32,028 bases of DNA from a virus. Lineage: Duplodnaviria; Heunggongvirae; Uroviricota; Caudoviricetes. The stretch lies in IMG/VR virus record IMGVR_UViG_2534681701_000015; one strand, written 5' to 3'. A model generated the notes under the pieces. The model did no database searches. It saw only the letters and a list, made by a program, of their open reading frames with translations, and had not been told where the DNA came from. Each line of letters opens with the position of its first letter. Positions within the stretch are counted from its first letter, which is position 1. The translations under genes were made by a program, and so were the position numbers. Shown here in pieces: positions 1-9,202 of this stretch.

Positions 1-1224
1 ATGGCGTTGTCTGATGCGTGGTTGCGTTCAGTCATTGGAAAGGAACGTGATAAGGTTTTGGTTAAATCCGATCGTGATGGTTTGTCTGTCAGAGTATCAC
101 CGAAAGGTCGCGTAGTGTTCCAATATCGTTATCAATGGGCAGGGAAAGGCGAGCGCCTTGATATCGGTACTTACCCGGCAACTGGATTAAAAGAGGCCAG
201 AGAAGAAGTTATCCGTCTTCGTGGTGAACTCGAGTCAAACCGCAATCCACGATTGGTCAAGCAGGTAGAAAAACGCAAAGCTACTGAAGCCATGACGGTG
301 GAGTCTGTGATCCGTGCCTGGTATGCAGCATATTGTGTAAAAAATAAAAAAGGTTCTGAGCAGATACTCCGCTCATTTGAACTGCACCTGTTCTCTAAAA
401 TCGGGAGTATCCCTCACGATGTAGCTACTTTGCATGATTGGTTAGAGGTCCTGGAGCCTCTTAGCACTAAGACTCCAGCAATAGCAGACCGATTGCTAAT
501 TAACGCAAAGCAGGCCCATGTCTGGGCGTATAAGAGAAAGCTCATTGAAACTCGCCCGCTGTCGGATATCACGGGTAAAGATATGGATATCCGTAAAGGT
601 CAGAAGAAACGGTTTCTGACACATGATGAAATTAAAATCCTTTATGCTGCGATCGATGGTTCTCGAATGGTTCCTAAATACCGGGCCTTCATTAAACTAT
701 TGCTGCATTTTGGTTGCCGTAGTTCAGAGCTAATTACTGCCCGGGTGGACGATTTTGATTTCATTAATAAAGTATGGACTGTACCACCAGAACGACATAA
801 GACTGGGGAGATAACAGGCGAACCGCTAAAGCGACCCATTATTGAACCGGTTGAAGAGCTTATAAAGTACGCTATCTCTATGAACAATGGTTCCGATATG
901 CTTTTTACTAAGGAAGGAAGCAGGGAACCCGTTGGTCGGACATCATTGCAGTCGCTGCCTTACAATTTAATGCAGTACGCATGGCGGCGTTTGGGGTATC
1001 AATTCCCTCATTGGTCTCTTCATGATTTGAGACGAACAGCACGAACAAACTTTTCTGATCTTACTGAGCCTCATATTGCAGAAATAATGCTAGGTCATAA
1101 ACTGCCAGGGGTATGGCAAGTTTATGATAAGAGCGATTATCTAGAAGAACAGCGTAAAGCCTACCAGGCATGGTGGGAGAGAGTTAAATCGATTGTTACT
1201 TGTACTAACTCATGCTCCAATTGA
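1..1224 (+). CDS. int: Tyrosine recombinase / phage integrase, P4-type, complete (ATG at window position 1)
   Basis: 407-aa ORF; N-terminus MALSDAWLRS...VRVSPKGRVVFQYRYQ resembles the arm-binding domain of P4/CP4-57 family integrases; C-terminal HDLRRT and downstream Tyr region fit the catalytic domain. Confidence 0.9.
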   Translation: MALSDAWLRSVIGKERDKVLVKSDRDGLSVRVSPKGRVVFQYRYQWAGKGERLDIGTYPATGLKEAREEVIRLRGELESNRNPRLVKQVEKRKATEAMTVESVIRAWYAAYCVKNKKGSEQILRSFELHLFSKIGSIPHDVATLHDWLEVLEPLSTKTPAIADRLLINAKQAHVWAYKRKLIETRPLSDITGKDMDIRKGQKKRFLTHDEIKILYAAIDGSRMVPKYRAFIKLLLHFGCRSSELITARVDDFDFINKVWTVPPERHKTGEITGEPLKRPIIEPVEELIKYAISMNNGSDMLFTKEGSREPVGRTSLQSLPYNLMQYAWRRLGYQFPHWSLHDLRRTARTNFSDLTEPHIAEIMLGHKLPGVWQVYDKSDYLEEQRKAYQAWWERVKSIVTCTNSCSN

Positions 1225-1257
1225 TACAGTATGCCCAGCCAGTATGTAATCAAATTT

Positions 1258-1306
1258 GGCAGCCTGCTTTGAGCGTAAAGCGAGAGCTGCCATTATTCTT
1301 ATATTT
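1258..1306 (+). terminator. Possible intrinsic terminator downstream of int
   Basis: Imperfect hairpin GGCAGC...GCTGCC (1258-1291, with inner GCTTT/AAAGC pairing) followed by T-rich ATTATTCTTATATTT. Confidence 0.3.
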
Positions 1307-1358
1307 GAACGCTATACGATTAACTTTTTGACTGATAGATCAACTGGGTTCAGTATAC

Positions 1359-1379
1359 CACCTGCAATATAAGCAGGTG
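1359..1379. repeat. Perfect 7-bp inverted repeat CACCTGC-N7-GCAGGTG
   Basis: Read directly: 1359-1365 CACCTGC, spacer AATATAA, 1373-1379 GCAGGTG; lies between int and the cargo operon; function unknown. Confidence 0.5.
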
Positions 1380-1395
1380 ATGGATAAATATATCA

Positions 1396-2301
1396 TTATT
1401 GGTCAGGATATTTTGATAGTTCAACTTCAAAAGTTGAATTTTTGTTTTTTAGAACATGATCAACACCTTTATAAAGTTGCCGTAATTTATTTACTGCATT
1501 TATATCAATGGAAGCAGGGGAGAATGCTCGGATAAGATTGTTGAAGATTTCCTTGGAGTAAGCAGATTTCTTCTTTTTATCAAGAGAGTCCATTCTTTTA
1601 ATAATGATTTCTAAAAGATATGTCTTTTGATTGTTATGCATTTTTTCTGAAGTAATAATCAGATACATCATTTCCCCCAAGGTTTTAGAGGCAAAGAACT
1701 CTGGAGATTGCTCTTTCTCTTCTGGTGTCCAGTTATCATAATTGAGGTGTTCTGTTGCTCCTGCCCATATATTACAACGGCTGATTAGCTCATATATTAA
1801 ATAATCAAATCGCATGGGGAACTCTCTATTTACATCTATGCTGCTAGATTTTTCATAACTCTCAAGTATTTCCTTTAGGAAAAAACGATAATACATGAGC
1901 CACATATTGTCTTTTGAGCGTTTGAATATTGCTGTAGATACCATAACATCGAAAAACGTCAATCCAACGAAGATTGGGCATTCCCAACGCTCATCACTAC
2001 TTGAATAGTAATTATCTGGATGATTGTAAAAGCAAGAACTCCCTTTTTGTTTTTTTATGTAGCTAATGACATAATCACCCACAGGTTTCCATATTTCTAA
2101 ATCTATCGCCATGCGAATATCATTTAAATAAAAATTAAGCAAGGTATTACTTTCGTCGAGTGCATACTCCCCTGTATATGAACGATTTTGGTTGTCTCGT
2201 AACTCCCTATACATAATGCTGTTTGGGTTAGATATTAAATACGTAAAGAAATTTGTATTATACTCACAATTATATCTAAGCTGTAAGCAGGTGGCCTTCA
2301 T
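1396..2301 (-). CDS. Hypothetical 301-aa protein, second gene of the AT-rich cargo module; no recognisable motif
   Basis: Uninterrupted 301-aa ORF in a visibly AT-rich segment; no Walker A, HxH or other motif recognised by eye; no clear SD before the ATG at 2301. Confidence 0.6.
   Translation of the reverse strand: MKATCLQLRYNCEYNTNFFTYLISNPNSIMYRELRDNQNRSYTGEYALDESNTLLNFYLNDIRMAIDLEIWKPVGDYVISYIKKQKGSSCFYNHPDNYYSSSDERWECPIFVGLTFFDVMVSTAIFKRSKDNMWLMYYRFFLKEILESYEKSSSIDVNREFPMRFDYLIYELISRCNIWAGATEHLNYDNWTPEEKEQSPEFFASKTLGEMMYLIITSEKMHNNQKTYLLEIIIKRMDSLDKKKKSAYSKEIFNNLIRAFSPASIDINAVNKLRQLYKGVDHVLKNKNSTFEVELSKYPDQ
1420..1450 (+). terminator. Intrinsic-terminator-like hairpin plus T-tract, embedded in the 3' end of the convergent minus-strand CDS
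   Basis: TTCAACT-TCAAA-AGTTGAA stem-loop (1420-1438) followed by TTTTTGTTTTTT (1439-1450) on the plus strand. Confidence 0.4.
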
Positions 2302-2369
2302 AGCTACGTGAGGGTAAGTATCAATTAGATAATGTGAAAAAACCTTTGATTTCAGAAGATTGGATATAT

Positions 2370-2956
2370 TTAATTGAATATCATTTTGTCTTTTGTCTTT
2401 TGTCTTTTGTCTTCATAAGGGAAAAACTTTGACAGAAATCTCCTGACTTTTTTGAATCGTAATTTTTTTACCTTCTCTTCATCCATTTCAATGGGAGATA
2501 ATGAAGGGGCTAAGTAATTATGTACGCGAACATACCATTTTTTATTGCTGATTATATTGAATAGCTGCTCGTGATATTTATCAAAAAGATATCCTAGTTG
2601 TTCTATTTTTTTTGCGCGCAGATATGTTTCTGAAACACTGATCCAACAGGTAAGGTTTGCTTTTGGTAGTATTTTGCCCTGTACTTTAATTCCAAAAAAT
2701 ATAATTATGATACAAAGACAAGTAAAAGCCAATGTATCTTCGTTAAAACCGAGTATCCAAGGGATCGGTTTTATCGGGAAAACACTTAGCAAAACCTTAG
2801 AATATATAACTGTTAATATTGTTGATATAAAAAGATAATGAATGCTAAATTAAATTTAGATATGCGTAACCTTAAATCAACACGTCTCTCATCCGTTAAG
2901 AGAGTATACCAAGCAATAAGTATGGCGAAGACTGCTAGTAAACCATTGGCACCCAT
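2370..2956 (-). CDS. Putative multi-pass membrane protein (about 195 aa if joined), apparently frameshifted at an A5/T5 run
   Basis: ORF 2370-2792 begins at TTG with no in-frame ATG/GTG before the upstream stop at 2850-2852; a 47-aa ORF (ATG 2956, SD GAGGTG, stop 2813-2815) lies in the -1 frame; joining at the A run 2829-2833 gives hydrophobic segments LLAVFAILIAWYTLL, FNLAFIIF..ILTVIY and LAFTCLCIIIIFFGI followed by a basic tail. Confidence 0.45.
2384..2411. repeat. Tandem heptanucleotide repeat (TTTTGTC)x4 inside the 3' end of the membrane-protein gene
   Basis: Four perfect head-to-tail copies at 2384-2411; on the coding strand this is GACAAAA x4, encoding the KRQKTKDK C-terminus. Confidence 0.9.
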
Positions 2957-2996
2957 TATCACCTCTGAATAAGCTACATTTAGACATTCATAAAAA

Positions 2997-3025
2997 ACTT
3001 TAATACTATGTACTTATTGTAACAA
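2997..3025 (-). promoter_or_regulatory. Putative sigma70 promoter for the cargo operon
   Basis: Minus strand reads TTGTTA-N17-TAAAGT (-35 at 3020-3025, -10 at 2997-3002), about 40 nt upstream of the SD/ATG at 2956. Confidence 0.25.
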
Positions 3026-3188
3026 ATTCTGGGTGTTTTCATCAGAATTATCTGCATCATCCTGCACCATTAATTTTGGTGCTTCGCTGGTGGTATTTGC
3101 AACATCTACTTCAGGCACAGAGTAGACAGTCTGATTAGGTTTAGCTCTGTGCCATAGATGTGTTAGCTCACATCTGAACGAATACGTA

Positions 3189-3383
3189 TTACTCAATAAC
3201 TCCCGCAAACCTGTATATCTTGCGTGATGCCCATTTATTTGGGCAGGATTTAATATCAGGATCTGGGAAGTCAGGCCTGTATTTCTGGCCAGTTCTCCTG
3301 TTTACGCTGTTCCAGCGAAGAACTGTCGATACTGAAACGCCACAGAAATCAGCGACTTGTTTAGTTGTCATTAAGTTGTTCAT
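3189..3383 (-). CDS. Small HTH DNA-binding protein, excisionase/AlpA-like
   Basis: 64 aa; MTTKQVADFCGVSVSTVLRW is a helix-turn-helix typical of Xis/AlpA-type regulators; start overlaps the stop of the upstream gene (TAATG). Confidence 0.55.
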   Translation of the reverse strand: MNNLMTTKQVADFCGVSVSTVLRWNSVNRRTGQKYRPDFPDPDIKSCPNKWASRKIYRFAGVIE

Positions 3384-4003
3384 TACTTCACCTCCTGCGG
3401 CGGCTCCGGTAGCGGCATCCAGTGGGTTACTTTCGATGCCGGTTCTTCCCCATTGTCAGTAACTGCCCACCATTTGTTTCTCGAACAATCGTAATACCCT
3501 TCGAAGGTATCGCACTCAGTCCAGCCGTAAGACTTACCCCAACACCAAACATACTGTTTATCGTTCGGCATTCGCTCACTACAGCTTATCCAACCATCCG
3601 GAGTTACCGGAGAGTTGCCCGACAGCTTGTTCAACTTATAAGTCTGGCTTACAGGTTTGGCACCATGAAGCATGGTGGCGCGGCAGGCGTTCCAGCCTTC
3701 ATCAAAACCGACTATGCCATTATTTAAAGACGGACGAGCATCTGGCACCACCAGTACTGGCTTGGCTATATATAGCGGCTGAACATACCAGCCCTTTGAT
3801 AACCAACTGTCAGCAATGTTTTTGCTCCTGGTTATTGCCGGAATACCTAAGCCATTGTCTGAATGCAGCCATGCCACCGGCTCCTCTTCCAGCGATGCCA
3901 GAGCAATTTCATAAGCACGGCGCTCAATATCGTCTCGAATCTCTAGGCTGCTGATTCGTTCTTTGATTTCTTTAATCAGTTCTTTATTGGTAAATGTGGT
4001 CAT
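3383..4003 (-). CDS. DUF551-family phage protein
   Basis: 206 aa; C-terminal THWMPLPEPP is characteristic of DUF551; translationally coupled to its neighbours. Confidence 0.65.
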   Translation of the reverse strand: MTTFTNKELIKEIKERISSLEIRDDIERRAYEIALASLEEEPVAWLHSDNGLGIPAITRSKNIADSWLSKGWYVQPLYIAKPVLVVPDARPSLNNGIVGFDEGWNACRATMLHGAKPVSQTYKLNKLSGNSPVTPDGWISCSERMPNDKQYVWCWGKSYGWTECDTFEGYYDCSRNKWWAVTDNGEEPASKVTHWMPLPEPPQEVK

Positions 4004-4968: not shown

Positions 4969-7414
<2,446 letters not shown>

Positions 7415-7471
7415 TCACTTAAATAAGTGATAGTCTTAATACTAGTTTTTAGACTAGTCATTGGAGAACAG

Positions 7472-7837
7472 ATGATTGATGTCTTAGGGCCGGAGAAACG
7501 CAGACGGCGTACCACACAGGAAAAGATCGCAATTGTTCAGCAGAGCTTTGAACCGGGGATGACGGTCTCCCTCGTTGCCCGGCAACATGGTGTAGCAGCC
7601 AGCCAGTTATTTCTCTGGCGTAAGCAATACCAGGAAGGAAGTCTTACTGCTGTCGCCGCCGGAGAACAGGTTGTTCCTGCCTCTGAACTTGCTGCCGCCA
7701 TGAAGCAGATTAAAGAACTCCAGCGCCTGCTCGGCAAGAAAACGATGGAAAATGAACTCCTCAAAGAAGCCGTTGAATATGGACGGGCAAAAAAGTGGAT
7801 AGCGCACGCGCCCTTATTGCCCGGGGATGGGGAGTAA
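7472..7837 (+). CDS. insC: IS2 OrfA (InsC), HTH protein
   Basis: [41 protein letters not shown]...; A6G slippery run at 7789-7795. Confidence 0.9.
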
Positions 7838-8700
7838 GCTTAGTCAGCCGTTGTCTCCGGGTGTCGCGTGCGCAGTTGCACGTCATTCTCAGACGAACCG
7901 ATGACTGGATGGATGGCCGCCGCAGTCGTCACACTGATGATACGGATGTGCTTCTCCGTATACACCATGTTATCGGAGAGCTGCCCACGTATGGTTATCG
8001 TCGGGTATGGGCGCTGCTTCGCAGACAGGCAGAACTTGATGGTATGCCTGCGATCAATGCCAAACGTGTTTACCGGATCATGCGCCAGAATGCGCTGTTG
8101 CTTGAGCGAAAACCTGCTGTACCGCCATCGAAACGGGCACATACAGGCAGAGTGGCCGTGAAAGAAAGCAATCAGCGATGGTGCTCTGACGGGTTCGAGT
8201 TCTGCTGTGATAACGGAGAGAGACTGCGTGTCACGTTCGCGCTGGACTGCTGTGATCGTGAGGCACTGCACTGGGCGGTCACTACCGGCGGCTTCAACAG
8301 TGAAACAGTACAGGACGTCATGCTGGGAGCGGTGGAACGCCGCTTCGGCAACGATCTTCCGTCGTCTCCAGTGGAGTGGCTGACGGATAATGGTTCATGC
8401 TACCGGGCTAATGAAACACGCCAGTTCGCCCGGATGTTGGGACTTGAACCGAAGAACACGGCGGTGCGGAGTCCGGAGAGTAACGGAATAGCAGAGAGCT
8501 TCGTGAAAACGATAAAGCGTGACTACATCAGTATCATGCCCAAACCAGACGGGTTAACGGCAGCAAAGAACCTTGCAGAGGCGTTCGAGCATTATAACGA
8601 ATGGCATCCGCATAGTGCGCTGGGTTATCGCTCGCCACGGGAATATCTGCGGCAGCGGGCTTGTAATGGGTTAAGTGATAACAGATGTCTGGAAATATAG
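7795..8700 (+). CDS. insD: IS2 OrfB (InsD), transposase catalytic domain, made as an OrfAB fusion by -1 frameshift
   Basis: 301-aa ORF with DDE integrase-like core, overlapping the end of insC in the -1 frame. Confidence 0.9.
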
Positions 8701-9202
8701 GGGCAAATCCACCAGTCTTCAATCCATTCTGCCAGTGACTTCTGGGAGTTACGCTCACCGTTAACAGACAACAGAGCAGAGAACGGTGCTGTCTTTTTCA
8801 GTTTGAGAGTGGCGGTGTTATCTGCGTGACCTGGTTCATCAATAGTACCCAGATTAAGCACACTGACGGCACGCATATTATCAGCATCGATAAAGCAGCG
8901 GGTGCCTTCATCTGCAAGATCTTTAGAATAACGGGTAAAGTCATCGATGCTGGCAGTGGAAAGCGCACCACGGAAACGTAAGCGATTTAAATTAAATTTT
9001 TCCAGATCATGAATGCGGAAATTCTCGGGCAATGCCACAGCATCGGCACCAATCTTACTGATAATTTCATTAACACCCTGAGCAGAAATAAGGGCATGGA
9101 TTTGATTAATTGCGGTTGCGTCTAAGTTCTGAGACATAATAAGTCCTCACTATATAAAGATATTCAGTGATGAGATAAATAATCAGTTAATTAAGAACGA
9201 TA

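Follow-up and report, generated by a model that had tools for sequence, protein, structure and literature searches.

A membrane-protein gene beside the integrase of a lambdoid prophage, very probably inactivated by two slippage mutations

The window, i.e., the whole stretch of 32,028 nt of viral DNA analysed here, carries next to its integrase gene three consecutive open reading frames of 47, 140, and 301 aa in three different frames of the minus strand, which raises the question of whether these are genes in their own right or the parts of a single gene, and in the latter case what has broken it. An earlier note on this DNA was concerned with the first two ORFs and left three options for the frame break between them: a homopolymer sequencing error, an inactivating mutation, and an on/off switch. 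A second frame break (14 bp, 2400-2413) and the continuation of the gene through the ORF 1396-2301 were absent from it. The following features are relevant:

1396-2956, minus strand: whole putative pseudogene, the remains of a 515-aa gene, delimited by intact 1548-bp orthologues and in-silico repair
2960-2965, minus strand: Shine-Dalgarno sequence GAGGTG with the core GAGG (2965-2962) and a 5-nt spacer to the ATG at 2956-2954, read from the sequence
2813-2956, minus strand: fragment 1, the 47-aa ORF, with residues 1-42 as in the intact protein, followed by five out-of-frame residues and TAA
2370-2792, minus strand: fragment 2, the mechanically called 140-aa ORF with a TTG start
1396-2301, minus strand: fragment 3, the 301-aa ORF starting at an internal ATG, corresponding to residues 215-515 of the intact protein
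2829-2833, minus strand: lesion 1, T5 (A5 on the plus strand) in place of T6 in intact alleles, a 1-bp deletion identified by alignment
2384-2413, minus strand: lesion 2, a perfect tandem heptamer tract AAGACAA/GACAAAA (gene strand), identified by TRF and alignments

Read directly from the minus strand, the 140-aa ORF has TTG 2792 as its first possible start, and neither ATG nor GTG occurs in frame between the upstream stop codon TAA at 2852-2850 and position 2792, just as the earlier note had described. Its coordinates for the upstream 47-aa ORF, which opens in another frame with a good Shine-Dalgarno sequence and an ATG and closes with TAA at 2815-2813, are likewise correct. Due to the family-wide conservation of the MxANG... 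N-terminus, ATG 2956 is supported as the true start. Expression of fragment 2 or fragment 3 alone was considered and rejected: the AAGG motif in front of TTG 2792 is situated merely 2 nt upstream, and ATG 2301 of the 301-aa ORF is not preceded by a Shine-Dalgarno sequence. A scan of 1200-3450 revealed neither an intrinsic terminator nor, on the minus strand from the xis-like gene to ATG 2956, a promoter-like site, the scan counts not exceeding the shuffled expectation.

The 47-, 140-, and 301-aa ORFs correspond, one after the other, to consecutive portions of a single conserved 515-aa protein, and this pattern is therefore not a chance arrangement. Coding homology is regained at 2828, just past the T run, and continues to the heptamer tract; the last residues of the 140-aa ORF (KTKDKMIFN) are out of frame. 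When the window was aligned with its relatives, exactly two length differences appeared, namely one base fewer in the T run and 14 more at the heptamers. The T-run deletion is located in transmembrane helix 2 at codons 42-43. The extra 14 bp at 2400-2413 consist of two added AAGACAA copies and shift the frame by +2, so that the window has four heptamer copies compared to two in every intact allele (TRF at 2384-2413: period 7, 4.3 copies, 100% match). Adjoining the tract, at 2359-2386, TRF also reported an imperfect near-tandem repeat of 14-15 nt (1.9 copies, 85% match), which may have aided misalignment at the heptamers.

In-silico repair of the T run only results in 195 aa with an out-of-frame end after the heptamers, and repair of the heptamers only in 460 aa from the TTG start. 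Repair of both lesions restores 515 aa with 0 differences from the protein WP_001406835.1 of E. coli strain 510016 (L001), and the ORF 1396-2301 is thus the C-terminal part of the same gene. Mutual compensation of the two lesions was considered as well and rejected, since their sum of +13 bases is not a multiple of 3. The earlier proposal that one base added at 2829-2833 joins the first two ORFs is borne out by L001, which has T6 at exactly this position. That this fusion yields a whole plausible protein holds in part: the ORFs do belong together, but the T repair alone gives the truncated 195-aa product. We therefore consider it very likely that 1396-2956 on the minus strand is a pseudogene of a low-G+C, 515-aa prophage cargo gene, killed by two slippage mutations.

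A homopolymer error of sequencing or assembly, in which case the genome would truly have T6 and the gene would be intact at this point, is suggested by the single T that separates the intact sister allele from the window at this run, and A/T homopolymers are often miscalled by one base. The T5 run is, however, repeated in at least 7 assemblies of the clade from at least 3 separate sequencing projects. Over 1951 bp, the sequences of GCA_000357545.2 (L007) and GCA_000358815.1 (L028) match the window at 100% identity, and the Logan assembly of ERR4899670 (L006) has T5 and four heptamers as in the window with a single SNP. T5 in combination with three heptamers was observed for GCA_049980085.1 (L008), GCA_000355415.2 (L029), and ERR4899653 (L030). 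As separate projects we counted the three early GCA_00035x accessions, GCA_049980085.1, and the Logan assemblies of ERR4899670 and ERR4899653. The 14-bp tandem expansion, which is untypical of base-calling artefacts, is reproduced too, and the exact 47-aa product is present on 24 contigs that were read and in 38 collection blocks according to the index. In a public collection, the exact 301-aa product has been called as a separate gene on 18-21 contigs, with E. coli P0298942.6 given as its source name. Because assemblies that were sequenced independently repeat both lesions exactly, a sequencing error is rejected, and we give hardly any credence to this option.

Region 1300-3250 was found by megablast in 35 complete E. 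coli genomes and in 24 records of Stx1a- or Stx2c-converting phages, with 98.5-99.2% identity over genomes and phage records, and in these relatives the locus is always flanked by the same integrase and DUF551 genes. The closest relative, L001, has one 1548-bp CDS encoding the 515-aa hypothetical protein mentioned above, and the same was observed for L002 (O39:NM F8704-2; 515-aa hypothetical protein WP_032361255.1). Judged by match length, 19 of the 35 complete genomes are intact (1938 bp); the remaining 16 have a match length of 1939 bp (11 genomes) or 1937 bp (5 genomes) instead. Since match lengths are restricted to 1937-1939 bp, all 59 complete genome and phage records (35 and 24) have two heptamers.

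Matches to the intact protein extend far beyond E. coli. The L001 protein matches PHROG 13820 over residues 4-460 (E = 2e-41), its sole hit among the family models searched, and full-length homologues with E-values down to 1e-286 and 40-84% identity occur in other genera. A homologue search resulted in 54 cluster representatives with full-length members of 502-559 aa, shorter rows being fragments, from gammaproteobacterial genera including Citrobacter, Yersinia, Morganella, Pantoea, Pseudomonas, Vibrio, and Shewanella. In a profile search of 1.84 billion representatives, 933 clusters at 50% identity were obtained, and among the 150 profile matches listed, most are approximately 500-600 aa in length and aligned from residue 1. 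No match was found for the intact protein in Pfam, NCBIfam, and PADLOC (PADLOC-DB v2.0.0 defence HMMs: 0 families at E <= 1), for ten longer or divergent family members in Pfam, or for the family in a profile search of PDB sequences, i.e., no solved relative. Literature mentioning six RefSeq protein accessions of the gene was not found.

Hydropathy analysis of the repaired protein revealed three hydrophobic segments in the first ~98 residues, and the AlphaFold2 model of P0002, a Citrobacter homologue with 84% identity, is entirely helical (pLDDT 88.4, pTM 0.83, alignment of 43 sequences). According to the model, the intact protein is predicted to have three transmembrane helices at its N-terminus, followed by a cytoplasmic solenoid domain of ~420 residues that is all-alpha. 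The term "polytopic membrane protein" chosen in the earlier note thus captures the membrane anchor with its three transmembrane segments, but not the large soluble helical domain, which sets the protein apart from classical polytopic proteins. Three transmembrane helices followed by an all-helical soluble domain are also the architecture of the PHROG 13820 family. A single uninterrupted ORF of ~500-600 aa, as is typical of this family, is lacking in the window, where the copy is split into 47, 140, and 301 aa in three frames. Judged from its sequence, the window copy is best classified as a putative pseudogene member of the PHROG 13820 family.

The comparison with homologous loci, which the earlier note had called for, revealed single ORFs and not two genes with their own starts. 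This result also bears on programmed recoding, in which -1 ribosomal frameshifting or transcriptional slippage at the U/T run would bridge the end of the 47-aa ORF. Such recoding would be in agreement with the position of the break in a U-rich run (AUC UUU UUA) and with the good start signal on the upstream ORF only. However, homologues in many genera are uninterrupted and the intact E. coli alleles have T6; thus the split arrangement is not conserved among homologues, which contradicts programmed frameshifting. A bridged product would moreover still end at 195 aa through the heptamer lesion. T5 is too short for efficient slippage of RNA polymerase, and C UUU UUA is non-canonical in comparison to an X XXY YYZ frameshift site. 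The probability of recoding at this locus is, in our estimation, practically nil.

With a pseudogene remaining as the preferred reading, the alleles of E. coli were compared for their lesions. Inactivation by slippage was observed at three homopolymers:

T6>T5, clade A: window, L006, L007, L008, and others, with L001 as the intact sister
T6>T5, clade B: L004, L018, L019, and L020, with the markers C2333 and T1340
A8>A9, CDS positions 345-352: L005 and L017, whose downstream SNP backgrounds differ, possibly two events
A6>A7, CDS positions 1298-1303: L003 (O103:H2 12009) and L026 (Stx1a phage), one lineage

Between clades A and B there are no fewer than 7 SNP differences, including position 2844, which is located 10 bp from the T run, and it follows that T6>T5 arose twice; for the same reason, recombination is an unlikely origin of the second T5 clade. 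Isolates of clade B originate from Idaho, Washington, an unspecified US site, and Okinawa. Changes of the heptamer copy number are restricted to clade A, where three or four copies occur among near-identical T5 alleles. SNP 3058 (G/A) is discordant with the heptamer count, G with four, A with four, and A with three copies all being present, and this discordance requires at least 3 copy-number changes among sequences separated by no more than 2 SNPs. The heptamer has thus been repeatedly gained or lost once the tract exceeded two copies. Two neighbouring run accessions, ERR4899653 and ERR4899670, have three and four heptamers, respectively.

All lesions observed in the fetched alleles are due to slippage at repeats, with neither a nonsense mutation nor a larger deletion among them. 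In total, at least 5-6 slippage events stand against 13 coding SNP sites in the E. coli alleles. The intact CDS has 33% G+C and contains 20 A/T runs of at least 5 bases and therefore many slippage targets. A literature search on homopolymer-slippage pseudogenes in prophages returned nothing relevant.

Such a record of slippage might also be expected of a phase-variable contingency gene, whose membrane protein would be switched on and off reversibly by slipped-strand changes in the length of the T run, of the heptamer, A8, and A6 tracts, or of both. Every observed lesion is indeed slippage at repeats, the same T6 run was struck twice and the heptamer at least three times, which is indicative of hypermutable tracts, and two, three, or four heptamers occur among sequences up to 2 SNPs apart, the copy number being homoplasious with respect to SNP 3058. 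That a cargo gene of an E. coli prophage can be switched by a heptamer is known from neuO of the K1 prophage CUS-3, which encodes a phase-variable O-acetyltransferase and has the repeat unit AAGACTC (PMC13001214). For neuO, 3-53 repeats and 66% of genomes in the OFF state have been reported, and length classes within one culture amounted to 93/2/5% (PMC13001214). Both genes are cargo of E. coli prophages with a heptanucleotide repeat in the coding region whose copy number sets the frame, and their units, AAGACTC and AAGACAA, are similar.

The repeats of neuO lie at the 5' end, its ON and OFF states are both common, and heterogeneity within a culture is measurable. The window gene has two copies as the ancestral state in mid-gene (around codons 183-187), and three to four copies occur in one lineage only, which was already dead from T5. 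A relationship between neuO and the protein of the window exists neither in sequence nor in fold. The tracts of T5/6 and 2-4 heptamers are far shorter than those of known switches, two heptamers are kept in the 35 complete genomes and the 24 phage records, and T5 is fixed in the assemblies of geographically separate isolates of each clade. Furthermore, three and four copies alike leave the gene OFF, so that expression is not toggled by the observed variation, and in the window two independent out-of-frame lesions would have to revert. Neither a long unstable tract nor intermixed ON and OFF lengths among close relatives, as known from contingency loci, was thus found, and one-step reversibility at a single tract is lacking, since either repair alone fails to restore 515 aa. 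An on/off switch is therefore very unlikely. With a short tract, fixation within lineages, and a second out-of-frame lesion downstream, the switch joins the sequencing error among the options that were not substantiated, and the inactivating mutation is the one of the three supported by the evidence.

To what extent the gene is maintained in E. coli is indicated by the number of contigs carrying the exact product of each allele:

Five intact 515-aa alleles: 1556 contigs
436-aa allele (A7): 301 contigs
460-aa allele (T5, clade B): 34 contigs
301-aa allele (window type): 18 contigs
428-aa allele (A9): 11 contigs

Of the contigs with an exact match to any of the nine alleles that were looked up, ~81% have an intact 515-aa allele. 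The gene is usually maintained and not freely decaying, which counts against the picture of a plain pseudogene for the gene as a whole. Among the coding SNPs of the E. coli alleles, 10 are nonsynonymous and 3 synonymous (1235 and 310 sites, respectively), which corresponds to an omega of ~0.84 and is indistinguishable from neutral (p = 0.73). We read this as a dispensable cargo gene that is weakly constrained in E. coli and has repeatedly been lost by slippage. The fact that the heptamer drifted only in a lineage already inactivated by T5 suggests that out-of-frame expansions were purged as long as the gene was alive.

For the window copy, a succession of events may be proposed. A low-G+C cargo gene next to the integrase of a lambdoid prophage would first have undergone T6>T5 at 2829-2833 by replication slippage, truncating translation after 47 aa. 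The expansion of AAGACAA from two to four copies at 2384-2413, presumably by replication slippage as well, would then have added the second frame break. This order, with T5 first and the heptamer tract drifting neutrally afterwards, is probable, because the heptamer has changed only in the already dead lineage, with three to four copies among near-identical isolates. Dispensability in E. coli would explain the loss in several lineages by different homopolymer slips. Similar to slippage pseudogenes of cryptic E. coli prophages, a cargo gene is broken by A/T homopolymer indels and a tandem-repeat expansion, the lesions are fixed and inherited within lineages, and the prophage contains IS insertions. 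In contrast to typical cases of this type, the gene has unusually many independent frameshift alleles for its divergence and is still intact in most of its carriers.

The prophage itself, whose gene annotation was transferred from E. coli E138, starts in the window with a tyrosine integrase gene (1-1224, plus strand; Phage_integrase and Arm-DNA-bind_3), and the pseudogene is situated between this gene and an excisionase-like HTH gene (3189-3383, minus strand). From the integrase onwards the annotation is that of a lambdoid prophage, with the excisionase-like HTH gene, DUF551, yfdR/yfdQ-type early genes, a cI-like repressor, and Rha, followed by genes for the Q antiterminator, lysis, terminase, portal, and a ClpP-capsid fusion. 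The G+C content of 1300-3000 is 30-36% compared to 46-55% around it, and that of the pseudogene is 31-35%. Two insertion elements were identified in the early region:

7390-8703: IS2 (IS3 family) with 33-nt imperfect inverted repeats at 7390-7422 and 8671-8703
7427-7837: orfA of IS2
7795-8700: orfB of IS2
5095-7048: IS21-family element with inverted repeats at 5095-5122 and 7021-7048, in the early-left region beside the yfdQ remnant
5940-6962, minus strand: istA (rve and HTH) of the IS21-family element
5161-5943, minus strand: istB of the IS21-family element

IS2 splits the DUF2303/yfdQ gene into an N-terminal part (8628-9137, minus strand) and a C-terminal part (6992-7408, minus strand). Due to the disruption of the early region by IS2 and the IS21-family element, the prophage is regarded as decaying or defective. 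In several of the relatives L001-L004, the DUF551 genes are partial or pseudogenes, whereas the window has an intact copy of 206 aa (3383-4003); the region from xis to yfdR is thus mosaic among these prophages.

In an annotation of 1396-2956, a single pseudogene with frameshifts should take the place of the three ORFs, in preference to two or three entries for hypothetical proteins. In case of L003, L004, L005, and L017, PGAP annotated N-terminally truncated "hypothetical proteins" of 460, 436 plus 81, and 428 aa and no pseudogenes, and the 460-aa form has become the representative of a 90% cluster (P0001). These TTG-started RefSeq proteins of 460, 436, and 428 aa from sister strains are artefacts of this kind as well. 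In biological terms, the frame break is ordinary and belongs to a known kind of event. A modest lead is given by the heptamer as a small natural case in which a 2-copy repeat became unstable after its expansion to three to four copies, and another by the family, which is widespread (933 clusters at 50% identity, as given above) and, at the ends of mobile elements, recurrently has defence genes as its neighbours.

Homologues occur as solitary genes at the edges of mobile elements, with the following neighbours:

Vibrio homologue: beside a small integrase gene and a type I R-M operon, plus PDC-S19 genes (6e-72)
Enterobacter homologue: in a P4-like satellite, between the primase gene and a retron type VI RT (RT_VI, 7e-82) with a PDC-S35 TIR (3e-101)
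Morganella homologue: between genes for a ThsB-like TIR and an integrase
Pseudomonas homologues: in one species beside a type IV REase-like HNH gene (mREase_IV, 5e-24), in another beside an integrase gene

The PADLOC matches were obtained only for these neighbours, the family protein itself being without a match. By association, this context supports an accessory role in phage defence or exclusion, and the intact protein would accordingly provide an accessory function of mobile elements, most likely anti-phage activity or superinfection exclusion. As a guess, it might act as a membrane-anchored scaffold or sensor. Comparable to exclusion or abortive-infection factors of the type of P22 SieA and lambda RexB, it is encoded by a single low-G+C gene at the end of a temperate element beside the integrase gene and has an N-terminal membrane anchor, and its homologues are situated beside candidate defence genes; this likeness comes from genomic context and architecture alone, PADLOC homology being lacking. 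It is tempting to see in the intact gene a new anti-phage or superinfection-exclusion factor that would act as a single membrane-anchored protein and be carried by prophages, satellites, and integrative islands, with its A/T homopolymers and heptamer tract as low-frequency contingency sites by which lysogen populations shed or regain a costly function. We consider this combination improbable; if it were true, the window would represent an OFF state locked by the second slip.

The satellite harbouring the Enterobacter homologue lies on a metagenome scaffold (L035, 1-13309) and consists of int, Psu, Ogr/Delta, AlpA, and primase genes with three cargo regions, i.e., a HEPN_LA2681 gene between int and psu, the homologue after the primase gene, and the retron type VI RT with the PDC-S35 TIR.
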